A stretch of 20,000 nucleotides of DNA, taken from NCBI GenBank assembly GCA_016218805.1, contig JACRCW010000161.1, positions 53,170-73,169 on the forward strand, written 5' to 3'. Below the pieces are notes generated by a model. That model saw only the letters and a program-made list of their open reading frames with translations, did no database searches and was not told where the DNA came from. Shown one piece after another: positions 3,848 through 20,000 of the stretch. Position numbers and translations under genes: made by a program. Positions within the stretch are counted from its first letter, which is position 1. The number at the start of each line of letters is the position of its first letter. The DNA comes from Deltaproteobacteria bacterium (GTDB lineage: Bacteria; Myxococcota; JACRCW01).

Positions 3848-5983
3848 ATGCGTCCCACATGGTTCAGTGCGTGGTTGTTGGCGGCGGTGGTGGTTCCCAG
3901 CGCGGCGCGGGCGGCGGTGGGTGACAACACGGTGGGCGTGAACATCCACGTGGGTTACCCGTCATTCATTGCGGCGGCGGCGGACCTGGGCGTGGCGTGG
4001 GTGCGCGTGGATGGGAACTGGGACGCGCTCAACCCGGCCAACGGTTCCTACAACTGGGGCTGGATGGATGAGACGGTGAACCGCGCCCACGCGGCCGGTC
4101 TCAAGGTGTTCATGTCGTTGGGGTATGGGCCCGCGTGGGTGCCGCGGCACGGGGACACCGACGGGCGCGCGGGCAATGACGTGCCGGACAGCAGCGCGGA
4201 GTGGGCGGCGTTTGTGACCGCGGCGGTGCAGCACTACCGGGCGCTGGGCGTGACGCACTTTGGGCTGTGGAATGAGGCCAACCTGGAGAGTTTCTTTGAG
4301 GGCACACCGCAGGAGTACGTGGACCTCATTGCGGTGCCGGGGGCGGCGGCCCTCCGCGCGGCGTGCGCGGACTGCAAGGTGCTGGGCCCGGAGGCCGCCA
4401 ACGTGGGCGAGTGCGACGACTGGCTGGAAGCGGTGCTCACGCGCGCGCCGATCACGACGTGGGACATCATCACCCACCACAGCTACAACGGGTTTGCGGA
4501 CATGGGGACCAACATCTGGGACGGGGACACGTTTATCAACGCGTTGGAGGAGCAGCGGTTCTTCTTCACGCGGCGCTCGCTGCGGCAGATCCTGGACCTG
4601 GCCGGATGGAACGGCGAAGTGTGGATCACGGAGACCGGCTACCGCGCCAACCCGATTGGCGACGCGGGCGAGGAGGGGCGGCAGGCGACGTACGTGCGGC
4701 GCGTGCTGGAGGAGCAGTTGGCGCGGGCCTGGTACACCAACACGTTCTTCTACGAGATTGAGGACTGCGGACCCGCCCAGCCCGCGTGCGACATTGACGG
4801 GTTTGGGCTCATGCACGCGACCTCCAGCGGTGACGAGGGCACCAAGACGTTCCCGGGCGACTACCGGCGCAAGCCCGCGTTCCAGGCCATCAAGGATTTC
4901 ATTGCCGCGCACCCGGCCATCACCGGGCAGACGCCGCCGCCGCAGTGTGGCGACGGCGACGACAACGACGGGGACGGCCGCACCGACGGGGCGGACCGCG
5001 GGTGCTCCGGCGCGCTGGATGACAATGAGGCGGATGACCCGCCGCGCCGCACGCTGTCCGCGTACGTGACGCCGGGGCTCAACGTGGACGGCGAGTTCAC
5101 CGACTGGGGCGCGGAGGGTTGGGTGACGCTGGGGGCGGCGGACTGGCATGGCACGGAGCCGCTGGGCGCGGGGGACCAGGAGGTGCGTGTGGCGGCGCGG
5201 TGGTCCTCCGCAGGGTTGGCGCTGGCGTTGGAGGTCACGGATGACACGCAGGAGAACGGCCACGCGGACGCGGACCTGTGGCAGGGTGACAGCGTGCAGC
5301 TGGCGTTTGACACGGGGCGCAACGGTGGCACGGGATACGACGCCACCGACGACCACGAGATCAATTTCGCGCGGGTGGCGGGGCAGCCGCGCAGCTACCG
5401 CTTCAAGGGCCCGGCGGGCGCCACGTCGGACTGGCAGTTCGCGGTGCAGCGCGCGGGCACCGTCACCCGGTACGAAATACAACTACCGCCGCCCGCCGTG
5501 CCGGGCCTCCCCACCAGCGCGGGGAACGAGACGGGGTTCTCGTTCCTGGTCAATGACGCCGATGGATCGGGGCGCGCGGGCTGGACGGAATGGACGGCGG
5601 GCATTGGTGTGGGGAAGGTGCCGGAGTTGTTCGGGCGCATCCACTACGAGTCGCAGTCCGCCGGCGGCGGCGTCGCCTCGTCCAGCGGACCGGCGCCGCA
5701 GTCGTCGTCCTCGGTGGCGGGCGCGTCCTCGTCCGCGGGCGGTGGCGGGAGCAGCGCGGCGGTGGGCACGTCCTCCACCGCCGGCGGAGGGAGCTCGGGA
5801 ACCGCGCCAGGCTCGTCCGCGGCGGGGGTGAGCGGCGGTGGCGCGGGCAGGGCGTCGTCGGGTGACGCGTCAGATGACGTGCCGCCGGATGCGTGCGCGT
5901 GCAGCGACGTTCCACGCCGCACGCCGCTGGCGGGGCTGGTCCTGCTGGGCGCGCTCGCGACGTTCCGGCGGCGGCGGCACTGA
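3848..5983 (+). CDS. Secreted clan GH-A glycoside hydrolase (GH5/GH39-like) with CBM9-like sugar-binding domain, Ser/Gly linker and MYXO-CTERM-like anchor
   Basis: GGAGGT SD then ATG 3848. Signal peptide ending ARA. WNE acid/base (~4268) and ITETG nucleophile (~4631). CGDGDDNDGDG.DGAD..C Ca-binding-like motif. VDG..DW / WQGDSVQ / YEIQLP / GFSFLVND are CBM9-like. C-terminus CAC + hydrophobic stretch + RRRR. Confidence 0.8.
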   Translation: MRPTWFSAWLLAAVVVPSAARAAVGDNTVGVNIHVGYPSFIAAAADLGVAWVRVDGNWDALNPANGSYNWGWMDETVNRAHAAGLKVFMSLGYGPAWVPRHGDTDGRAGNDVPDSSAEWAAFVTAAVQHYRALGVTHFGLWNEANLESFFEGTPQEYVDLIAVPGAAALRAACADCKVLGPEAANVGECDDWLEAVLTRAPITTWDIITHHSYNGFADMGTNIWDGDTFINALEEQRFFFTRRSLRQILDLAGWNGEVWITETGYRANPIGDAGEEGRQATYVRRVLEEQLARAWYTNTFFYEIEDCGPAQPACDIDGFGLMHATSSGDEGTKTFPGDYRRKPAFQAIKDFIAAHPAITGQTPPPQCGDGDDNDGDGRTDGADRGCSGALDDNEADDPPRRTLSAYVTPGLNVDGEFTDWGAEGWVTLGAADWHGTEPLGAGDQEVRVAARWSSAGLALALEVTDDTQENGHADADLWQGDSVQLAFDTGRNGGTGYDATDDHEINFARVAGQPRSYRFKGPAGATSDWQFAVQRAGTVTRYEIQLPPPAVPGLPTSAGNETGFSFLVNDADGSGRAGWTEWTAGIGVGKVPELFGRIHYESQSAGGGVASSSGPAPQSSSSVAGASSSAGGGGSSAAVGTSSTAGGGSSGTAPGSSAAGVSGGGAGRASSGDASDDVPPDACACSDVPRRTPLAGLVLLGALATFRRRRH

Positions 5984-12333: not shown

Positions 12334-15300
12334 TCAATCATCATCAAACAGTTTGTCAATTTCATTACGCAGCGCCTGTTTGCCGGCCTGGGGTGGCTGC
12401 GGGGCCGCGGGCGGCGCCGGCCATCCCTGCGGCGGGGCGCCATACGGTCCGGGCACGCCGGTGGGCGGTGCGGACGGGGGCGGGGCACCGGGTTCGCCAA
12501 ACAGGTCATCCACGTTGGTGCTCCCCGCCGCCGGCGGCGAGGGATACCCGGGGTAGGCCGCTGCCGGCGCGCCAGCGGGCGGCGGCGGTGCGTACTGCTG
12601 GGGATAGGCCTGGGGAGCGCCGTACGGCTGTTGCTGCGGGTAGGCCGCCGGGGGGTAGCCGGGTGGCTGCGGATAGGCCGGCTGCGGGTAGGCCGGTGCC
12701 GGGTAGCCCGGTTGCGGTGGGTAGCCCTGTGGCTGCGGATAGGCCTGCGGCGGATAGCCGGGCTGGGGCGGATACCCGGCCGGTTGCGGGTAGGCCGGTT
12801 GCGCGGGGGGGTATCCCTGCTGCTGCGGCGGCGGATAGCCGGCCTGCGGCGGGTAGGGCGTTTGCGCGGCCGGGTATCCCGCGGGGGCGTAGGCGCCGTA
12901 CGCCGGTTGCTGCGGCGGGTAGCCCGGCTGCGGGCCTGCGGCGGGGGCGCCCTCCAACAGCACGCCGCCCACCACGGCCGGGATGTCATCTTCCGCCGCG
13001 GCGGGAGCCGTGTGCGGCACGGCGTTCCACGCGTTCCCGGAGTAGCGGTTCTCCGGGTGGTCCATGAGCATCTCCGAGCCGGACGCCAGCGGCATCGGGT
13101 CGTCGGGATTCCCGTCCAACGCCAGGTCGCTGATGCCCATGGACGGATCCCGGACCATGGGGTCAATGCGCCCCAATGGCGGTTCTTTGGACGAGGAGCC
13201 CAGCGGGCCGGACATGGACACGCTGCCTGAGCCCACCAGGTCCGCCGTGGGGGCGGAGGATGGGTCCACCAGGAAGCCCTGGGCGCCGGACCCCAGCAGG
13301 GCCGCGCGGCCATTGGGGTCCGCCTCAATGTTGCGCTCATACGCAAACATGTCAGGCGGCGCCGGCGGGGCTGGGGGCGGCGCGTAGGCAGGTGGCGGCG
13401 GCGGCGGCGGCGCGTAGGGAGGCGCGTAGGCCGGCGGCGCGTACGCCGGCGGCGGAGGATACCCGGCCGCCAGGACGGGGGGCGCGGCCGGTGAGCCCAC
13501 GGGTGTCCCCGCGACGACAAACGTCGGCTCGGGGGGGGCCACCGGCGCGGCCTGCACCACCGGCCCCTCCAGTTCCCGGTCGAAATCGGGGTCATAGGTG
13601 GAGGGCTCGGCCTCCTCGGCGGCCTCGGCGGCAAAGTTGGGGAGCGCGGCGCCCAGGGCCGGCGGCGCGGGTGCCGCCGGGCTGATGGGTGGCACCGCCG
13701 GGGCGACGGGCGGCGCGTACGGCGCCTCCGCGGGCGCATCAAGGCCGGACAGGTCCACGTTGGCGGCCCCCTCCGTCACGCCCAGGGGAGCAGCGGGGTA
13801 GTCCGCCAGGGAGGCCACCACGCCCACGGGCTGCTCGGCGAAGGTGGCGGGTTGCTCCTCAGGCGGCACCTCCGGGGCCACGGGTGCGGGCGGTGGCGCC
13901 GGGGGAAGCATGTCCTCCAACTCCGGTGCCAGCAGCCGCGGCGCCGGGGCCGCGTGCGCGTCCGCGGCCGGCTGCAGGGAGGCCGGGACGTGCATCTCGG
14001 TGGTCGCCAGGCCGCCTTCCGGTTCCCCCTCCGCCGCTGCTGCCGCGCTGGCGCGGGCCTGCCCGGGTGGCGGCAGCTGGTGCTCCGGAAGGTCAAACAC
14101 CGGGTCAAACTCGGGGTGGTCCGGGCCGTACCCCTTGTCCGCCGCCGCGGTCACCGGGGGCGGCGCCGGCTCCGCAGCGGGCGCCTGCTGACCCATGGCC
14201 CAATCAAACGCCTTCAAACCCTGCGGGACCTGCACCTGCACGGTGGCGTCCGTGAACATCTCCGCAGCCGCCGCAGGCCTGGGGACCAGGGAGTCCTCGG
14301 CGAGCGCCGGGGCCGGGTTGGGCTGGCCCCACGCCTGGAACAGGGGGTCCAACGCCGGGGCGGGCGCTGCCGGCGGGGCCGCGGAGAGGTCGCCGATGTC
14401 GTCGGCCACGGCCACCTCGTCCCCCGGCGTGGGGGCGGCGACGGCCGGGGCATCGGTGCCCGTCCAGTTGGTCTCAAACAGGGTGTCGTCGGCCGTACCG
14501 GGTTCCGCCGCCGGGACCGGCTCCATGTCCGCCGGGAGCGCAAGCTCCACGGGCCCGGCGAGCACGGGCGGTGGGGCGGGTGCTTCCGCCGCGGGCGCCG
14601 GGGCCGGGCGGGCCAGCGGCAGCGGGATGTCCAGGAAATCCAGCCCGGCCGGCGTGGCCTTGGGCGCAGGGGCCGGGGCCGGCGGGCTGACCAGGACGGC
14701 GGGGGGCGCAGGGGGGGCGGCGGCCGGTACCTCGTCAAACAGCCCCTCCAGCGGTGAGGGCGCTGCGGCAGGGGCGGGCGGCGGGGGAACGTCCGCAGCC
14801 AGCGGCTGGCCACCGGGGATGGGCGTCATCAGCGACTCGAACCCGGCTGCTGCCTCGGTCACGTCGGGGACCATGGGCGGCTCGGACAGGGGCGCACCCA
14901 CCTGCTCCGGAGCTGTCGGTAGTTCGAAGGGCGGCTGGGGCAGGGCCGGGGGCGGATTGACGTCGTCAGGCACCGCGGCGGGGGGCGGTGCGGACGCCTC
15001 TTCAGCGGAGGCGGCGTCCGCGCCGGGGGCCGGCGTGGCGGGCAGCGAATCCCAGCCGGGCTCCATGACGGGCGCGGCCATGGCCGGGATGGTGGGCTCG
15101 CCCTCCAACGGTGGCAGCGACGACGCTGGAGCCGCATCCAACGGCGCCAGCGAATCCGCCGGTGGCGCCGGCAGCGGCGCGCCGAATTCCGCGATGGCGG
15201 GCGGTGTGTCCCAGGCGGCGTCAGCTGGGCCCGCGAGGTCCGGGATGACCAGCGGGGCCTCCTCCGCCACGGGCGGGGCCGCGGGCAGCTCGGGGGGCGG

Positions 15301-15903
15301 AGTCGCCGGCACCTCGCTCAAGACGCCAAACAGCGCCTCCTCCGTCGGGGGCGCGGGCGGCGCCGGCGGCTCGGCGAAGAAATCCGTGACGGGTGCAGAG
15401 GCCGCCGTTCCGGCGGGCGGCTCCAGGGAAAAGTCCGCAACTGCCGCGGGCGGCGGAGTCGGCTCGGCGAAGAAGTCCGCCACCGGCGCGGCCACGGGCT
15501 CGGCGGGCGGGGCGGCTTCCTCGGGGGGTGATTCGGGGGGTTCCACGGATTCAGGCGGGAGGGCGGGGGACTCGGGGGACGGCTCCACGCGGTCAGCCAG
15601 CGCCGGCGCCGTGGCCAGCAGCTGCCGGACGCGCGCCAGCACCGCCGCGTCCGGCGCGGTGAAGGTGACCTCCATGACCCCGCCACCTGACGACAGCACC
15701 TCCCCGTCCACGCCGGTGCGCGGCGTGCCGTCCACGCTGGGCAGCTCCAGGAACACGCGCGTCCCCGCGGGCAGCGGGCGCTGTGTGAGCACCTGCAGAC
15801 CCGCGGGGCCCAGGCCGGCCAGGGAGTCCTCGCGCGCCGAGAGGAGCGATTCGTGCCACACGGAGTGGGCGCTTGACGGGGAGGCGGCGGAGCCGTTGGC
15901 CAT
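12334..15903 (-). CDS. ~1189-aa Pro/Ala-rich disordered protein with N-terminal PilZ-like domain and Tyr-Pro-Gln repeat tail
   Basis: ATG 15903 behind GGGA. LGPAGLQVLTQRPLPAGTRVFLEL...VDGEV...GVMEVTF is PilZ-like. Long acidic P/A region; YP(P)Q repeats; terminal ALRNEIDKLFDDD. Confidence 0.8.
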   Translation of the reverse strand: MANGSAASPSSAHSVWHESLLSAREDSLAGLGPAGLQVLTQRPLPAGTRVFLELPSVDGTPRTGVDGEVLSSGGGVMEVTFTAPDAAVLARVRQLLATAPALADRVEPSPESPALPPESVEPPESPPEEAAPPAEPVAAPVADFFAEPTPPPAAVADFSLEPPAGTAASAPVTDFFAEPPAPPAPPTEEALFGVLSEVPATPPPELPAAPPVAEEAPLVIPDLAGPADAAWDTPPAIAEFGAPLPAPPADSLAPLDAAPASSLPPLEGEPTIPAMAAPVMEPGWDSLPATPAPGADAASAEEASAPPPAAVPDDVNPPPALPQPPFELPTAPEQVGAPLSEPPMVPDVTEAAAGFESLMTPIPGGQPLAADVPPPPAPAAAPSPLEGLFDEVPAAAPPAPPAVLVSPPAPAPAPKATPAGLDFLDIPLPLARPAPAPAAEAPAPPPVLAGPVELALPADMEPVPAAEPGTADDTLFETNWTGTDAPAVAAPTPGDEVAVADDIGDLSAAPPAAPAPALDPLFQAWGQPNPAPALAEDSLVPRPAAAAEMFTDATVQVQVPQGLKAFDWAMGQQAPAAEPAPPPVTAAADKGYGPDHPEFDPVFDLPEHQLPPPGQARASAAAAAEGEPEGGLATTEMHVPASLQPAADAHAAPAPRLLAPELEDMLPPAPPPAPVAPEVPPEEQPATFAEQPVGVVASLADYPAAPLGVTEGAANVDLSGLDAPAEAPYAPPVAPAVPPISPAAPAPPALGAALPNFAAEAAEEAEPSTYDPDFDRELEGPVVQAAPVAPPEPTFVVAGTPVGSPAAPPVLAAGYPPPPAYAPPAYAPPYAPPPPPPPAYAPPPAPPAPPDMFAYERNIEADPNGRAALLGSGAQGFLVDPSSAPTADLVGSGSVSMSGPLGSSSKEPPLGRIDPMVRDPSMGISDLALDGNPDDPMPLASGSEMLMDHPENRYSGNAWNAVPHTAPAAAEDDIPAVVGGVLLEGAPAAGPQPGYPPQQPAYGAYAPAGYPAAQTPYPPQAGYPPPQQQGYPPAQPAYPQPAGYPPQPGYPPQAYPQPQGYPPQPGYPAPAYPQPAYPQPPGYPPAAYPQQQPYGAPQAYPQQYAPPPPAGAPAAAYPGYPSPPAAGSTNVDDLFGEPGAPPPSAPPTGVPGPYGAPPQGWPAPPAAPQPPQAGKQALRNEIDKLFDDD
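12541..12925 (-). repeat. Low-complexity (G/A)YP(P/Q)x coding repeats
   Basis: About 22 Tyr-centred units such as GYPPQP and AYPQP in ~128 aa. Confidence 0.85.
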
Positions 15904-16006
15904 GGTGTCCCGAACGGCGATGCGGGTCAGCCGGTGGTCCACCGGGAGCGCGTCGCCGGCAGGCACGCTAGCAGCGGAAACAAAACGGCGGCAAACTGCC
16001 GGCCCC

Positions 16007-16213
16007 GTGAAGCGCGCCCGCTGCCCCCGGTGCAAGGTGACCGTCCCACCGGAGAGCCGGGATGCGCCGTTCTGCTCGCCGCGCTGCCGCATGGCGGACC
16101 TGGGGGCCTGGTTGACGGAGAGCTACCGCATCCCCGCTGAACCGGATGACGACGACGACGGTGAGAGCCGCCCGGCGCACGGGACCATGCCGCCGCCGGA
16201 CGGCGACCAATGA
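16007..16213 (+). CDS. yacG: DNA gyrase inhibitor YacG
   Basis: CPRC...PFCSPRCRMADLGAWLTESYRIP followed by an acidic tail. GTG at 16007. Hidden at the end of track ORF 14195..16213. Confidence 0.9.
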   Translation: MKRARCPRCKVTVPPESRDAPFCSPRCRMADLGAWLTESYRIPAEPDDDDDGESRPAHGTMPPPDGDQ

Positions 16214-17103
16214 CCCCCGCCCGCGCGTTGCTCTGGGTGGCCCTGGGTGCGTGCTTCATCTCCTTCGCGGGACCGCTGACCCGGTTGTCCACGCTTCCCC
16301 CCACCACCAGCGCGGCCTGGCGCATGAGCATTGCCGCGGCCACGCTCTGGCTGCTGGCCGTGGCCCGCCGCCAACTGCCCAGCCGGGAGGTGGATCGCCG
16401 ACGCGCCGGCGCGTTCGCCATCCTGGCCGGGCTGGCGTTCGCCGGGGACCTGTTCGTGTGGCACCGGAGCATCCCTGCCGTCGGCGCGGGGGTGGCCACG
16501 CTGCTGCTGTCCACGCAGGTGTTTGCCGTGGCGGTGCTGTCCCGCGTGCTGCTGCGTGAGCACGTCCGGGCCGCCCTGTGGCTGCTGGCAGTGACCGCGG
16601 TGGGCGGCGTGGCGCTGCTCTCCGGCGCGGCGGGTGGCCGCGCGCTGGACCCCGTGGGACTGGCGCTGGGACTGCTCACCGGCGTGTTCTACGCGGCGTA
16701 CTATCTGTGCCTCCGCCACAGCCAATCCGTGCCCGGCGCGCTGCCGCCCATCCCCAACCTGGCCCTGTCAGCCAGCGTGGCAGCGGCGGGACTGGTGGCG
16801 CTGGCCGGCCTCACCGGCGAGGACCTCCAGACGCTGCCGGGCCGCGACCTGGTCATTGTGCTGGTGCTGGGCGTGGTGATCCACGTGGGCGGCTGGTTGT
16901 CCGCGCAGCACGGGATGACGCACGTGCCGGCCGCGCGCGGGAGCCTGGTGTTGCTGCTGCAACCGGCGCTGGCCGTGGTCTGGGGTTGGTGGTTGCTGGG
17001 CGAGGCGCTTTCCGCGCTGCAACTGATGGGCGTGCTGGTGACCCTGTGCTCCGTGGTGGGGGCCACGCTGCTGCGGTCCAACCAGGGAGGACGCCGTGTG
17101 TGA
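16210..17103 (+). CDS. DMT/EamA family transporter
   Basis: About 10 TM helices in two halves; AAWR, G.ATLL, LLLQPALAVVWGWWLLGEALS..Q..G. ATGA overlap with yacG. Confidence 0.9.
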   Translation: MTPARALLWVALGACFISFAGPLTRLSTLPPTTSAAWRMSIAAATLWLLAVARRQLPSREVDRRRAGAFAILAGLAFAGDLFVWHRSIPAVGAGVATLLLSTQVFAVAVLSRVLLREHVRAALWLLAVTAVGGVALLSGAAGGRALDPVGLALGLLTGVFYAAYYLCLRHSQSVPGALPPIPNLALSASVAAAGLVALAGLTGEDLQTLPGRDLVIVLVLGVVIHVGGWLSAQHGMTHVPAARGSLVLLLQPALAVVWGWWLLGEALSALQLMGVLVTLCSVVGATLLRSNQGGRRV

Positions 17104-18319
17104 CACCGTGGTGCGGGTGCTGCCGGGGAAGGTGCTGTTTGCCAAGAACTCTGACCGCGACGCCAACGAGGCGCAGGCGCTGTGCTGGGAACCGGCGCGC
17201 GAGCACGCCGCGGGCGAGGAGGTGGGGTGCACGTGGATGGCCATCCCGCAGGCGCGCCGCACCCACGCGGTCCTGCTGAGCCGGCCGTTCTGGATGTGGG
17301 GCGCGGAGATTGCCGCCAATGAGCATGGCGTCGTGGTGGGGAATGAAGCCGTGTTCACCCGCGCACCGTACGCGCGTACGGGACTCACGGGGATGGACCT
17401 GTTGCGGCTGGCCGTGGAGCGCGGGGCCAGCGCGGACGAAGCGGTGGAGGTGATCACCTCGCTGCTCACGCGCCATGGCCAGGGCGGCGGCTGCGGCCAC
17501 GAGGACCGGTCGTTCACCTACCACAACAGCTTCATCGTCGCGGACCGGCGCGGCGCCTTCGTCGTGGAGACTGCCGCGCGCGAGTTTGTGGTGGAGCGCG
17601 TGGAAGGCGCGCGCTCCATCTCCAATGGGCTGACGGTGGACGGCTTTGCCACCCACCACTCGGACTGGCTGTACACCGCCGTGAGCGCTTGCCGCGTACG
17701 GCGCCAGCGCACGGAAGAACTGGCCGCGCGCGCCGGTGGCCCCGCTGACATGGCTGCCATCCTGCGGGACCACGGCGGACGGCCCGCGCCGCGCTATTCG
17801 CCACTCAACGGATGCATGGACGCGCCGTGCGCACACGGCGGCGGGCTGGCCACCTCCACGCAGACCACCGCCTCCTGGGTGGCTGAGCTGACCCCGGTGG
17901 GGGACCGCCACTTCGTCACGGCGACGGCCGCGCCGTGTACCGGGCTGTTCAAGCCGGTGGACGTGGACGCCCCGCTGGACCTGGGGCCGTGGCCCGGGGA
18001 CGTCTTTGACGCACGCACGCCCTGGTGGCGCCACGAGCGGCTGCACCGCTCCGTCATGCGGGACCCCGTGCGGCTGCTCCCACTGTTCGCAGGCGAACGC
18101 GACGTCCTGGAGGCGCGCTTCCTGCGCGAGCACACGCCACCGGGGGAGGCGTTCCGCCTGGCTGACGAGGCCACCGCGCGCTGGACCGCGCGCGTGACGG
18201 AGGAGGCGCAAGCTGACACGCGGCCGGTGTGGACCCGCGCGTACTGGTCCCGCCGCAACGCGCGCGCGCGGCTGCCGGCGTTGTCACCTGGCCGGAAGCT
18301 GGGTGGGATTCGCCGTTGA
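17096..18319 (+). CDS. Secernin-like peptidase C69 (Ntn hydrolase)
   Basis: MCDT N-terminal Cys nucleophile, FAKNSDR, LSRPFWMWGAE..NEHGV..GNEAVFT, GMDLLRLAVER, YHNSFIVAD, SISN, FKP. 8-bp overlap with the EamA gene. Confidence 0.9.
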   Translation: MCDTVVRVLPGKVLFAKNSDRDANEAQALCWEPAREHAAGEEVGCTWMAIPQARRTHAVLLSRPFWMWGAEIAANEHGVVVGNEAVFTRAPYARTGLTGMDLLRLAVERGASADEAVEVITSLLTRHGQGGGCGHEDRSFTYHNSFIVADRRGAFVVETAAREFVVERVEGARSISNGLTVDGFATHHSDWLYTAVSACRVRRQRTEELAARAGGPADMAAILRDHGGRPAPRYSPLNGCMDAPCAHGGGLATSTQTTASWVAELTPVGDRHFVTATAAPCTGLFKPVDVDAPLDLGPWPGDVFDARTPWWRHERLHRSVMRDPVRLLPLFAGERDVLEARFLREHTPPGEAFRLADEATARWTARVTEEAQADTRPVWTRAYWSRRNARARLPALSPGRKLGGIRR

Positions 18320-18393
18320 GCCACCGTGAGGGCAGGCCATGCAGCGCAAGCCGCGGCGGGCGGGACGGGCTGACGTGGACGGCGGCCCGCCAG

Positions 18394-18643
18394 GAAGACG
18401 CGCTTGTCAGCGGGCCAAGGCGTGCTTCTCCCAATCGAAGAGCCGCTCATCCCCGGGAGCACCGGTTCTTCCCCTGACAGAAGAGGCGCTTCTCCCCGGG
18501 TGAAGACCGGCTGCTCCCCAGGCGAAGCGGGTCTTCTCCCTGGAGAAGGCGGTCTACTCGCGCGAGAAGAGGCAAATGTGCTTGGAATCCTTCGCTCTTC
18601 GTTGCAGGGGAAGACGGTCTTCCCACCGGCGAAGCAGGTCTTC
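18394..18643. repeat. Non-coding array of 12 imperfect GAAG-N5-CTTC palindromes with 21-22 bp period
   Basis: 13-mers start at 18394, 18416, 18437, 18459, 18480, 18502, 18524, 18545, 18566, 18588, 18610 and 18631. Units at 18480, 18524, 18610 and 18631 match perfectly; those at 18459, 18566 and 18588 keep only one intact half-site. Confidence 0.8.
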
Positions 18644-18709
18644 TCTCACGTGACAATCCGCAACCCGCAGGACAACGGCGGCACTCGTCACGGGACGGGC
18701 CCAACGGAA

Positions 18710-19177
18710 TCAGCCCTCCGGCGCCCCGCCGGCCTTGCCACCGCCGCCGCGCTTCTTCTTGAAATACGCCACCAAGACGGAAAACCGCTCCAGCAGTTCC
18801 GGGTTGCGTTTGGATTGGGCGTTCACCTGGTCGTTGATTTGGCGGAGCAGGTCGTAAGCGCGTGCATCAAAGAGAAGGTTTGCCTGCTTGAAGCGGTTGA
18901 GCATGGACTCAATGTCAATGATGGCAAGGTCCACGTCTTCGGAAGCCGCGCCGCCCTTCCGCACCTCTGCCGGCGTCACGCCCGGCACGGAGAAGGAGTT
19001 CCCTTCCTCGGCCAACTTCTCCATGGTGTCCGCGCAGGCGGCGGCCACCAGCCCCAGCCCGCGAGGTGCCTTGGCAATCCGGGACACCTCCACCTCCGTC
19101 ATGTTTCCGGCCTTTTCCGGCGGGGCAATGTGGTCCGGCACGGTCAGCGAAACCGTACCCATCTTGATTTGTGCCAT
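18710..19177 (-). CDS. Hypothetical 155-aa, mostly helical protein with basic C-terminal tail
   Basis: Strong SD AGGAGG before ATG 19177; amphipathic helices; ends YFKKKRGGGGKAGGAPEG; more AT-rich codons than the neighbouring genes. Confidence 0.82.
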   Translation of the reverse strand: MAQIKMGTVSLTVPDHIAPPEKAGNMTEVEVSRIAKAPRGLGLVAAACADTMEKLAEEGNSFSVPGVTPAEVRKGGAASEDVDLAIIDIESMLNRFKQANLLFDARAYDLLRQINDQVNAQSKRNPELLERFSVLVAYFKKKRGGGGKAGGAPEG

Positions 19178-19206
19178 GGGGTTCCCTCCTGTTTGGGTTT
19201 GGAGCG

Positions 19207-19236
19207 CTGATAATCCAACGGCGTTTTTCATGGCAA
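19207..19236 (-). promoter_or_regulatory. Possible sigma70-type promoter for the 155-aa gene
   Basis: TTGCCA (-35-like) followed by TGGATTATCAG in an AT-rich patch. Spacing is non-ideal (15 or 18 bp). Confidence 0.25.
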
Positions 19237-19278
19237 GTTCCCCGTCCCGGCGTGGTGCCCGAGAGCCAGGCTGCCGAA

Positions 19279-20000
19279 TCAGCGCGAGCCCGCCCCGGTC
19301 TTCGCAATGAGTTGGCGGATCGCTGTGGCCTCGGGGAGCCTGAGGTGGTCGGCGGCCTGGAGGGCTTGCTCTAGGAGCTTCGCGGCTTCTTCCCGGTCTC
19401 CTGCGTTCCCGCGGAGGTACAGGCAGGTCGCCAGCTTCGCGCGCGTAACGAGCAGGGAGCGCACATCCCCCAGCTTCTCGTAAACGGGAAGCTGTTCCTC
19501 GCGGCGGATGCGCAGGGCCTCGTCAAGGTCTCCGCGGTTCTGGAGCACGTCGGCGATCTTGCCCATGGTGAGGGCCCGCGAGCGCACATCCCCCAGCTTC
19601 TCGTAGACGGGGAGCTGTTCTTCGCGGCGGATGCGCAGGGCCTGGTCAAGGTCTCCGCGGGCCTGGAGCACGTCGGCGATCTTGCCCATGGTGATGGCCC
19701 GCGAGCGCACATCCCCCAGCTTCTCGAAGACGGGAAGGAGTTCCTCGCGGAAGATGCGCAGCGCCTCGTCAAGGTCTCCGCGGGCCTGGAGCACGTCGGC
19801 GATCTTGCCCATGGTGACGGCCCGCTCGCGCACATCCCCCAGTTTCTCGTAGACGGGGAGCTGTTCGTCGCGGAAGATGCGCAGCGCCTCGTCAAGGTCT
19901 CCGCGGGCCTGTAGCACGTCGGCAATGTTGCCCATGGTGATGGCCCGCGAGCGCACATCCCCCAGCTTCTCGTAGACGGGGAGCTCTTCCTCGCGGCGGA
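19279..20000 (-). CDS. Tetratricopeptide repeat protein, C-terminal part (5' end outside window)
   Basis: Frame is open to the window edge; 41-aa TPR-like units EEQLPVYEKLGDVRSRAITMGKIADVLQARGDLDEALRIRR, then a divergent capping helix pair. Confidence 0.9.
   Translation of the reverse strand, partial: RREEELPVYEKLGDVRSRAITMGNIADVLQARGDLDEALRIFRDEQLPVYEKLGDVRERAVTMGKIADVLQARGDLDEALRIFREELLPVFEKLGDVRSRAITMGKIADVLQARGDLDQALRIRREEQLPVYEKLGDVRSRALTMGKIADVLQNRGDLDEALRIRREEQLPVYEKLGDVRSLLVTRAKLATCLYLRGNAGDREEAAKLLEQALQAADHLRLPEATAIRQLIAKTGAGSR
19459..20000 (-). repeat. Near-identical 123-bp tandem repeats (at least 4.4 copies)
   Basis: Anchor GCACATCCCCCAG recurs at 19461, 19584, 19707, 19830 and 19953, exactly 123 bp apart. 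Confidence 0.97.

Follow-up and report, generated by a model that had tools for sequence, protein, structure and literature searches.

A helically phased, non-coding repeat array linked to the gene of a predicted homodimeric protein family in a myxobacterial chromosome: a candidate row of docking sites

In the partition loci of R1 (parC/ParR), pSK41 (parC, type II) and TP228 (parH/ParG, type Ib), a small dimeric protein binds short, helically phased repeats beside its own gene, resulting in a superhelical complex. These centromeres are located either upstream or downstream of the gene, and their binders are ribbon-helix-helix proteins that are encoded together with ParM or ParA. Plasmid iterons (bound by the Rep proteins of F, P1, R6K and pPS10) and the iterons of the lambda origin (bound by the O protein) are direct repeats of 17–22 bp, spaced by about 22 bp and likewise found beside the gene of the binder; those of lambda are, in addition, dyad-symmetric. 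For plasmid F, the sopC centromere next to sopB is described as comprising a 43-bp direct repeat in 12 copies, within each of which lies an inverted repeat of 16 bp (PMC3177203).

Here, we describe a locus of related architecture from the genome of a member of the Myxococcota (G000). The window, i.e., the whole stretch of DNA that was analysed, comprises 20,000 nucleotides with chromosomal housekeeping genes; its end is the end of the contig, so that about 800 bp of sequence are available upstream of the gene of interest. The locus is composed of the following features:

18394..18652, no strand: the array, non-coding and made up of 12 degenerate units that recur on average every 21.5 bp (register and motif positions, Fourier analysis, column consensus)

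18710..19177, minus strand: gene encoding 155 aa, from an unnamed protein family; putative partner of the array (open reading frame; GC3 of 0.8–0.9 in frame)

19185..19190, minus strand: AGGAGG as ribosome-binding site, 7 nt upstream of the start codon (ATG at 19177; read from the sequence)

17096..18319, plus strand: convergent C45/C69-like Ntn-hydrolase gene (NCBIfam C45_proenzyme, E 2.9e-8, below the cut-off; weak Pfam matches to AAT and Peptidase_C69)

18300..18366, plus strand: incomplete copy of a dispersed element without coding function, overlapping the hydrolase gene at its end and adjoining the array (matches at C70:6215, C102:27605, C164:24503, C13:15266 and C140:25584)

19279..20000, minus strand: upstream TPR-repeat gene, truncated by the contig end (Pfam TPR_12, E 1.9e-27; 123-bp repeats, 91% match)

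The likeness to sopC/SopB, as outlined in PMC3177203, lies in the row of some 12 direct repeats in phase, in the inverted repeat inside each, and in the adjacent gene of a putative dimeric binder, with one 43-bp sopC unit corresponding to two array units (period 21.5–22 bp). While SopB is a plasmid-borne ParB-family HTH protein acting with the SopA ATPase, the 155-aa protein was assigned to no known family, is encoded on a chromosome and has no linked ATPase gene. The locus shows phased tandem repeats with an internal dyad beside the gene of a (here putative) binder, as a partition centromere does, while a linked ParA, ParM or TubZ gene was not found among the window's open reading frames or the 17 + 30 neighbouring ones of relatives. 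As regards the parC and parH systems, a ParM or ParA partner was not found beside the array, and the structure searches, which returned no specific fold, did not show a ribbon-helix-helix one.

The array itself is real and non-coding. Its units start at 18394, 18416, 18437, 18459, 18480, 18502, 18524, 18545, 18566, 18588, 18610 and 18631, with spacings of 22, 21, 22, 21, 22, 22, 21, 21, 22, 22 and 21 bp, so that the number, register and mean period of about 21.5 bp put forward in an earlier note on this DNA are borne out; of the extent given there (18394..18643), the start stands, while the last unit reaches to 18652. In the base-indicator Fourier spectrum of 18394–18652, the top signal is at 21.5 bp with a power of 10.1, a value attained by none of 1000 dinucleotide-preserving shuffles of the same region (mean maximum 2.42, largest 5.26); hence, the periodicity, which the earlier note had named as a point on which its reading might fail, is significant. 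GAAG occurs nine and CTTC eight times within the array region, and the GAAG phases at a period of 21.5 bp give a Rayleigh R of 0.99. All four exact copies of GAAGN5CTTC in the window are within the array (expected 0.09; at least four in 0 of 200 shuffles). Genome-wide, the density of matches to this motif at no fewer than seven of its eight specified positions is 0.47 per kb; the array holds eight in 260 bp versus four at the next-best separate loci, and the exact double-unit pattern occurs in G000 at this locus only. A DNA homologue of the gap carrying the array was found in none of 40 relatives. The array is flanked on both sides by a 10-bp direct repeat (CGGGACGGGC), which was considered as a target-site duplication and rejected, a rough estimate giving about 0.3 such chance matches per 400 bp at the local GC.

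One conceivable origin of such a row is the remnant of a decayed heptad-repeat (coiled-coil) gene, and xxGLLPG-like heptads are indeed readable in some frames over a few units. As had been noted before, the mixed 21/22-bp spacing disrupts every frame; a codon-position GC signal is absent across the array, and GAAG/CTTC codons should be rare at 70% GC. In homologous loci, a search for an intact in-frame 21-bp reading frame, the second point on which the non-coding reading might have failed, yielded instead non-coding arrays with a strict period of 22 bp that run to as many as 20.7 copies and, at this period, are necessarily out of frame. We therefore consider a coding remnant scarcely credible.

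The core of each unit is the dyad GAAGAC-n-GTCTTC; the majority-rule consensus over the first 21 columns reads GAAGACGCTCTTCTCCCCGGG, and GAAGACGGGCTTCTCCCCGGG if two aberrant units are left out. The units are more degenerate than the earlier formula of 12 GAAG-N5-CTTC units implied: the 12 phased units hold, while both half-sites are exact in only four of them, the units at 18459, 18566 and 18588 are aberrant, and Tandem Repeats Finder (TRF) recovers only 2.8 copies with a 71% match. Two of the aberrant units form a feature of their own:

18566..18609, no strand: two aberrant in-register units that interrupt the array; most A+T-rich part of the gap (GC 0.58–0.60 versus 0.70 in the genome)

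The earlier description of conserved half-sites and variable remainders is weakly borne out: column matches amount to 80–90% at GAAG/CTTC and to 40–80% at the other unit positions, a difference that is not significant against uniformly scattered mismatches (4237 of 20,000 simulations for 12 units, 1006 of 20,000 for 10 units), and, thus, selection on specific positions is not claimed and the array could be decaying. The three linker palindromes reported previously are present, CTTCTCC-CT-GGAGAAG being perfect and the other two having one mismatch each; the two alternating dyad axes follow automatically from a word that alternates with its own reverse complement. The earlier note had loosely compared the array to CRISPR and TIGR arrays while stating that it matched neither. 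From CRISPR it differs in that its units abut without spacers and no cas gene is present in the window (a Cas_GSU0054-like open reading frame at one relative's locus is not conserved). TIGR-Tas arrays are defined by an adjacent Tas gene with a Nop domain, and no Nop-domain match was obtained among the Pfam-scanned neighbours.

The stop codon of the 155-aa gene is 57 bp from the array. Its family has 155 representative clusters, and 14 proteins, the window's own included, match at E ≤ 1e-3; it is undescribed in the published literature searched, in which a 21–22-bp period rule for myxobacteria was not found either, only a catalogue of Geobacter repeats (see below) and papers on sopC being retrieved. 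No Pfam, NCBIfam, PHROG or PADLOC family was assigned to the protein, and Pfam was also blank for 60 family members. Neither PDB sequences nor Foldseek against PDB and BFVD gave a match at E ≤ 0.001 (two PDB sequences are listed up to E 10, at 0.15 and 1.4), the ESM Atlas returned unnamed clusters only, and the best VIA structure comparison (Z 6.2) concerned generic helical hairpins; a fold may escape structure searches of this kind. The AF2 model of the protein has a pLDDT of 86.5. A symmetric homodimer is predicted with an ipSAE of 0.77 (best of three controls 0.00), with contacts agreeing to at least 96% between runs and a partner pLDDT of 86; of the proteins solved as one-chain pairs, 20 of 30 attain the mark applied, as does 1 of 23 solved as single chains, counts that are rough as the own alignment was used.

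The linkage of arrays to this gene family is conserved. We compared 32 distinct family loci, 18 of them metagenomic and 14 from named Polyangiaceae and related genomes. As sliding autocorrelation at lags 21–22 misses degenerate arrays, including that of the window, and fundamental-frequency Fourier power misses homogeneous ones (e.g., that of locus L093), arrays were assessed by TRF and by phased-motif counts. Within 600 bp of the family gene, TRF detected 16 arrays with periods of 22, 43, 44, 65, 66 or 86–88 bp at 14 loci (31.4 kb of flank), and none of the 22-bp class in the remaining 96.7 kb. This corresponds to 51 arrays per 100 kb near family genes versus 1.4 per 100 kb in G000 (89 per 6.43 Mb); the other control counts are 2 per 400 kb (G001) and 1 per 278 kb (G002). 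A TRF array of this class is lacking at 18 of the 32 loci, several of which are short contigs, and six more loci pass the phased-core test described below. All three family members encoded in G000 adjoin 21–22-bp repeats, the two paralogues being:

C108:2749-3345: family member with an array of 22 bp × 9.3 directly upstream

C140:25682-26245: family member with a repeat of 21 bp × 2.3 upstream

While the unit sequences differ between family loci, a CGGTC core recurs in phase. CGGTC/GACCG pairs at distances of 21, 22, 43, 44, 65 and 66 bp number 147 (24.5 per distance), compared to 36 at 65 other distances (0.55 per distance), and two or more phased pairs are present at 20 of 33 family loci versus 3 of 438 control pieces. 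The motif had been chosen before loci L090–L105 were retrieved, 11 of 14 of which pass. The window's array is a poor CGGTC array with a single phased pair; its tie to the family core consists of GGTC in four units and of CGGTCTTC, which it has in common with L102. The arrays are located upstream of the gene at some loci and downstream at others, and the core is oriented either way (numbers of loci: downstream CGGTC 10, downstream GACCG 7, upstream GACCG 7, upstream CGGTC 1), with both orientations combined inside a single locus in five cases. Such variable position and mixed orientation fit a position-independent DNA site, and a core that occurs in both orientations fits double-stranded DNA better than a transcript. 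Otherwise, gene and array are the only constant pair: the neighbours (among them MmeI-like, type ISP methylase, Uma2, PIN, Ser/Thr kinases, the Cas_GSU0054-like open reading frame, HNH and TPR) are not conserved.

On this basis, we give an even chance to the array being a cis-acting row of about 12 docking sites on double-stranded DNA for the adjacent 155-aa protein. The protein would pair as a symmetric dimer, and each dimer would read the short dyad of one unit—GAAGAC-n-GTCTTC in the window, and ACCGATCGGT, GATCGGTC, TCGCGCGA and other dyads in relatives. With a spacing of 21–22 bp, i.e., two helical turns, successive dimers would point in almost the same direction from the helix axis and may be packed into one higher-order nucleoprotein complex, for which anchoring or segregation, titration, local silencing and autoregulation are candidate roles. 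The array, its phasing, its lack of coding function and its conserved tie to the gene family are what the sequences show; we infer the binding of the array by the protein, its doing so as a dimer, and all downstream steps. The earlier suggestion that a dimeric protein loads onto the array from one face of the DNA receives indirect support from the gene linkage, the predicted homodimer and the mixed core orientation, while its centromere- or iteron-like part is not matched by an iteron-type initiator or a partition motor. Against docking speaks that sequence and structure searches revealed no recognisable DNA-binding fold in the 155-aa protein; from its sequence, it has about 20 acidic and about 20 basic residues and is not basic.

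The strongest competing explanation is provided by the genome itself, in which about 89 arrays of the period class of about 21.5 bp (periods 22, 43, 44, 65, 66 and 86–88) are set against only three genes of the 155-aa family, as found by iterated HMM searches. TRF rows are in excess at periods of 22 (69) and 43 (25), compared with 20 (31), 23 (18), 41 (2) and 46 (2). Phased CGGTC is present in only 2 of 60 examined arrays; together with the excess of arrays over family genes, this indicates that the period is not specific to the 155-aa protein. The array of the window may, therefore, belong to interspersed extragenic tandem repeats of a REP/BIME-, BOX- or minisatellite-like kind, which arise by slippage or whole-array copying, collect in 3' gaps that tolerate them and lack any specific partner, their link to the gene being hitch-hiking in variable genome islands. 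Among the 60 non-coding arrays examined, 42 have a gene called on both sides (13 convergent, 22 tandem, 7 divergent), and gene ends face arrays more often (39 times) than gene starts do (23). Likewise in keeping with such repeats, some unit families occur at two or three G000 loci with homology confined to the array plus about 10–170 bp of flank, depending on the pair, and the window's own array is degenerate and borders a dispersed element. The array reads identically in the contigs that three DNA runs of a single study provide, with no sign of ongoing change; one of these runs is possibly the source of this DNA, and the identity is uninformative on variability. A shared gene family beside the other arrays was not found, 62 flanking open reading frames yielding only small clusters of large proteins. 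A hairpin repeat is dispersed in G000 as well, and of the two Y1_Tnp genes of this genome, one adjoins an array.

Intergenic direct-repeat families of Geobacter genomes are catalogued in the Geobacter bemidjiensis genome paper (PMC2996986), and this catalogue matches the array class of G000; in its account of these families, it names no period rule, partner gene or function. REP/BIME elements with RAYT transposases are similar in their short palindromic units and their extragenic 3' gaps; yet, they occur in tens to hundreds of dispersed copies, whereas the array unit is confined to one locus of G000, with no other copy matched, and repeats there head-to-tail with a constant period, in an array linked to a single gene family. 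Weighing against partnerless interspersed repeats are, furthermore, the array density next to family genes as opposed to the rest of their loci and to G000, and the persistence of the CGGTC core among loci whose proteins are only 43–55% identical, which is not expected from the hitch-hiking of unrelated arrays. The lack of conserved neighbours also argues against a common island being carried along. On balance, we regard this explanation as unlikely.

Considering that the array begins 57 bp past the stop codon on the gene strand, with no intrinsic terminator between, it could also act as RNA, transcribed either on its own as a small RNA or together with the 155-aa gene, whose mRNA it would extend at the 3' end; in this form, it would be a terminator or stabiliser made of several hairpins, or an RNA offering multiple sites to the protein. 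Between 18200 and 19400, scans revealed no promoter-like site and one terminator-like site, which is inside the 155-aa gene and not above shuffles. Both strands of the array fold better than shuffles (z −2.78, 1 of 200 as good; z −3.54, 0 of 200); these modest scores are due to the dyads alone, and the unit hairpins are weak, with 5-bp stems and 3-nt loops. Rfam 15, searched with permissive thresholds over 17500–20000, gave MIR1846, a family of plant microRNA precursors, as its best match for either strand (E 0.0042 and 0.019); with 29.7 and 27.1 bits versus a gathering score of 77.5, this is the level that any long inverted repeat reaches. The multi-hairpin RNA that the earlier note had offered as an alternative gained no positive support. 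Purine motifs of the form GGGAGAAG recur on the minus strand, and a CsrB-like sponge RNA was considered on their account and dropped because of the mixed core orientation in relatives. A single-stranded reading would tolerate neither this mixture nor arrays lying now upstream and now downstream of the gene, which makes a function as RNA distinctly improbable.

A replication origin of plasmid or phage type, built of iterons, or the true partition centromere of an integrated element would account for the phased direct repeats of about 22 bp, which is the classic iteron spacing, and for the slightly A+T-richer break within the array. The sopC-like layout of 12 repeats beside a binding-protein gene (PMC3177203) points in the same direction. 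The array shares the direct-repeat size and the spacing of iterons, but differs from them in having 9–21 units (relatives included) rather than 3–7, in its chromosomal location, and in that Pfam and NCBIfam gave no match to a Rep_3-, RepA- or TrfA-like winged-helix initiator in the 155-aa protein or its relatives. Just as motor genes are missing from the window and from the 17 + 30 neighbours of relatives, so are initiator genes. No DnaA-box-like site was found near the array, the 9-mer (consensus as generally known, at most one mismatch) occurring in the window only at 4620 and 8534, and the lowest GC of the gap, 0.58, does not amount to a clear A+T-rich unwinding element. The context is one of chromosomal housekeeping genes, homologues reside on contigs of 2.1 and 3.2 Mb in up to three copies per genome, and the family was not found by tblastn with single queries in plasmid and phage collections or with two peptide patterns in IMG/VR. 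Taken together, an origin or true partition centromere appears very unlikely.

Returning to docking sites, the observations allow for a wider, tentative reading, which we hold to be possible though doubtful: the pair would be an undescribed, self-contained two-part module of myxobacterial chromosomes, in which a homodimer of about 155 aa with a new fold assembles on its own row of 9–21 docking sites, two helical turns apart, into a large nucleoprotein body that has no linked motor or initiator and may serve as a motor-less centromere, an anchor or an insulator. On this view, the approximately 89 other arrays of G000 might likewise serve as docking rows for systems of this type; the GTCTTC core is common to the window's array and only three other arrays of G000, which could be served by the same protein.

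The putative module of gene and array would offer a handle on why non-coding tandem arrays in these genomes so often have periods of 21–22 or 42–44 bp; it is small, present in cultured carriers (Polyangium, Byssovorax) and, thus, directly testable. If the pairing is real, a new family would join ParB, ParR, ParG, TubR and Rep as proteins that assemble on phased repeat arrays, yet here the assembly would take place on chromosomes, with the customary motor or initiator missing. One would then have to ask what purpose such a complex serves in bacteria whose genomes are very large and whose cell cycles are complex.

The array of 12 degenerate non-coding units (18394-18652, mean period 21.5 bp) lies within the 390 bp that separate two convergent genes. 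The window forms the 20-kb end of contig C129 (73 kb) in a 6.4-Mb metagenome-assembled genome of 70% GC, and its remaining content is ordinary chromosomal, comprising Fpg, a MiaB-like radical-SAM enzyme, a glycosyl hydrolase, a SprT-like protein, and an EamA transporter. The genes bordering the gap are:

17096-18319, plus strand: C45/C69-like Ntn hydrolase gene, convergent neighbour of the array gap
18710-19177, minus strand: 155-aa ORF, preceded by AGGAGG at 7 nt from its ATG

The array itself is confirmed. All twelve units fit the register proposed in the earlier note, and the periodicity stands out from shuffled sequence, with a Fourier peak at exactly 21.5 bp and a power of 10.1, the highest of 1000 dinucleotide-preserving shuffles reaching 5.26. 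GAAG words (n = 9) are in nearly perfect phase (R 0.99); the window contains four exact GAAGN5CTTC sites, all within the array (expectation 0.09), and a genome-wide search for rival loci gave eight near-matches in 260 bp for the array and four for the next best locus. The designation (GAAG-N5-CTTC)x12 holds as to the 12 units in register, but both half-sites are exact in just 4 of the 12 and three units are aberrant. The tandem-repeat finder (TRF) reports 2.8 copies at 71% match, and the claimed contrast of conserved half-sites with variable intervals is weak, the unevenness along the unit being statistically indistinguishable from scattered mismatches. Codon-position GC marks both flanking genes, but not the array, as coding. 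The reading as a decayed heptad-coding gene is rejected.

Further repeats are present in the surroundings. A perfect 10-bp direct repeat, CGGGACGGGC (18361-18370 and 18691-18700), brackets the array at a distance of 330 bp and resembles a target-site duplication, a chance match being plausible at the local GC content. Upstream of the 155-aa gene, a TPR gene is built of 123-bp (41-aa) repeats (19457-20000) at 91% match, with 4.4 copies up to the contig end; the repeat probably caused the assembly break there. A 1252-aa ORF (12334-16092, minus strand) with good codon-position GC and no Pfam family contains several Gly/Pro/Tyr-rich tandem repeats (TRF rows 12633-12931, 13355-13455).

The 155-aa protein is a member of an unnamed family, of which a word-indexed search retrieved 14 proteins at E ≤ 1e-3, including the window's own, and an exhaustive profile search 155 representative clusters at 50% identity, nearly all of them stand-alone proteins of 140-165 aa. 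A Pfam scan of 60 members gave no match. The AlphaFold2 model (pLDDT 86.5) is composed of an N-terminal beta-hairpin, short helices, a 53-residue helix, and a disordered Gly/Lys tail, and structure searches with it returned no specific match among solved or viral folds. Two-copy prediction yielded a large symmetric interface (score 0.77; best of three controls 0.00), with at least 96% of contacts shared between runs and a partner pLDDT of 86. Of proteins solved as one-chain pairs, 20 of 30 attained the mark, as did 1 of 23 solved single-chain; these counts hold only roughly, because a custom alignment was used. The prediction supports a homodimer without proving it.

DNA was fetched around relatives of the gene at 23 metagenomic loci and 16 loci from named genomes (Polyangium, Byssovorax cruenta, Polyangiaceae and Myxococcales MAGs). 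Removal of partial or weak matches (L022, L023, L026, L028, L029) and duplicates (L100 = L099, L103 = L102) left 32 distinct loci. Tandem arrays of 21-22-bp period or its multiples repeatedly adjoin the gene, their unit sequences being unrelated to those of the window. Within 600 bp of the gene, 16 TRF arrays of period 22, 43, 44, 65, 66 or 86-88 bp are found in 14 of the 32 loci (31.4 kb), versus none in the other 96.7 kb of the same loci. In control DNA, this period class occurs at 2 per 400 kb (G001) and 1 per 278 kb (G002), and in the window's own genome (G000) at 1.4 per 100 kb. A profile of 60 family members against all six-frame ORFs of G000 retrieved three members, the window's own among them, and repeats adjoin all three. 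Examples of the arrays, including those at the G000 paralogues, are:

L093: 22-mer, 20.7 copies
L099 and L102: 8-9 copies each
Byssovorax gene: three sub-arrays upstream of it, together about 17 units
Paralogue C108:2749-3345: 22-bp x 9.3 array, beginning at the gene's 5' end
Paralogue C140:25682-26245: 21-bp x 2.3 repeat, 60-100 bp before the gene start

In 401 genomes of the phylum, 19 remote matches were obtained, of which five (L110, L111, L114, L116, L117) are flanked by clear non-coding 21/22/65-bp arrays; the 21/42/63-bp repeats at L124, L126 and L127 may be coding. Apart from the array, the scan of neighbour ORFs of the window and relatives revealed no conserved neighbour; adjacent genes encode MmeI-like and type ISP restriction-modification proteins, Uma2, PIN, Ser/Thr kinases, a Cas_GSU0054-like ORF, HNH-DUF222, an AAA protein with subtilase, ORF6N and, at the window locus, the TPR protein. 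Two loci of the Chloroflexota-labelled bin AMX-MBFR-23 and two of the Myxococcales bin AMX-MBFR-64 of the same series (the pairs L099/L100 and L102/L103) match in percent identity and E-value to the query and have identical TRF units, copy numbers, and scores; they are probably one organism's contigs binned twice.

Despite their unrelated units, the arrays share a core. CGGTC (or its complement) was spotted at fixed phase in the first loci and then counted over the flanks of 33 loci, giving 147 pairs at 21, 22, 43, 44, 65 or 66 bp (24.5 per distance) versus 36 at 65 other distances (0.55 per distance). At least two phased pairs occur in 20 of 33 loci versus 3 of 438 control pieces, and 11 of the 14 named-genome loci that were fetched only after motif choice pass this test, which also detects degenerate arrays missed by TRF (L094, L095, L097, L104, L024/L025). 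The window array itself scores poorly, with one phased pair, its core having drifted to GGTCTTC/GCGCTTC. CGGTCTTC is common to the window array and the L102 units.

The main rival explanation is that the array is one of a wider class in G000 and lies beside the 155-aa gene by chance. TRF periods of 22 (69 rows), 43 (25) and 44 bp (7) are indeed far above 20, 23, 41 and 46 bp in G000, where merging gives 89 arrays of the period class, among them:

C163:42444-42737, non-coding
C114:52216-52488, non-coding
C133:98016-98367, non-coding
C96:45786-46062, non-coding

These arrays are built from many unrelated units, most of which include a short palindrome, and their usual place is the 3' end of a gene. 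Where genes were called on both sides (42 arrays), 13 occupy convergent and 7 divergent gaps. Some arrays are shared by two or three loci, with homology confined to the array. Because G000 is full of such unrelated arrays, the 21.5-bp period is a property of the wider class, far fewer members of which occur in the G001 and G002 samples. In the Geobacter bemidjiensis genome paper, the repeat catalogue lists intergenic direct repeats of 6-42 nt without function (PMC2996986). Phased CGGTC occurs in only 2 of 60 examined G000 arrays, where CCCCC, CACCC and ACCCC are the commonest phased words and 22 of 60 have phased C or G runs. Against chance placement argue the local enrichment beside family genes, which is 37-fold, and, for the 155-aa family, the core shared across distant relatives; we consider the rival unlikely.

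GTCTTC (as GTCTTCACCCC) is in 21-22-bp phase in three other G000 arrays (C70:6036-6185, C77:4387-4515, C125:23194-23257), with the same core as the window array (GTCTTCTCCCC); hexamer permutations average 0.31 phased runs, and 2 of 59 reached three. These arrays may offer additional sites to the same protein or just be related in sequence. A dispersed non-coding element of ~100 bp is present at window 18300-18366 and at C70:6215, C102:27605, C164:24503, C13:15266 and C140:25584, most copies being followed by a G+C-rich hairpin, GGGAGGGCTCGGC-TCCT-GCCGAGCCCTC, with ~25 occurrences in the genome; 21/42-bp arrays adjoin three copies of the element. An ORF beside the C70 copy reads like a Y1 transposase motif, but the Pfam Y1_Tnp search gave no match to it. 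The two Y1_Tnp (IS200/RAYT-type) matches in G000 are C54:78377-78601 and C163:59716-60024, the former gene lying ~500 bp from a tandem array (C54:79087-79313).

Concerning whether the arrays act as DNA or RNA, most loci have them downstream of the family gene, others upstream. Read along the sense strand of the gene, downstream arrays show CGGTC in 10 loci and GACCG in 7, upstream arrays GACCG in 7 and CGGTC in 1, and five loci contain both orientations. Units generally hold a short perfect or near-perfect palindrome, i.e., GAAGAC-n-GTCTTC in the window and ACCGATCGGT, ACCGAT-gg-ATCGGT, GTCGCGAC and TCGCGCGA in relatives. Mixed orientation together with palindromes would suit the needs of a symmetric dimer that reads duplex DNA, and is awkward for single-stranded reading. 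RNA folding z-scores of the array are modest (-2.8 and -3.5), and an Rfam search gave no credible match.

The best-supported reading, to which we give about an even chance, is a protein with its docking-site array: a small dimeric protein would pair with a row of ~12 phased sites on DNA in a self-contained system. The proposal of a binding array for a dimeric protein is strengthened, DNA binding by the 155-aa protein being putative, with the genomic linkage as its evidence. The layout is akin to the sopC/SopB, parC/ParR and iteron/Rep pairs, sopC being described as 12 repeats of 43 bp that contain one 16-bp inverted repeat apiece (PMC3177203). The protein and array of the window match none of these in full, because they lack a linked motor or initiator gene and because family and structure searches gave none of the known protein folds. 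No ParA, ParM, TubZ or Rep gene is linked to family genes among the scanned neighbour ORFs of the window and relatives, and no DnaA box lies near the array. Homologues are located on 2.1- and 3.2-Mb contigs, and the queries used did not find the family in plasmid, phage or IMG/VR collections. Such a cognate protein with a phased repeat array would be of a known kind, here with a new protein family and no motor or initiator.
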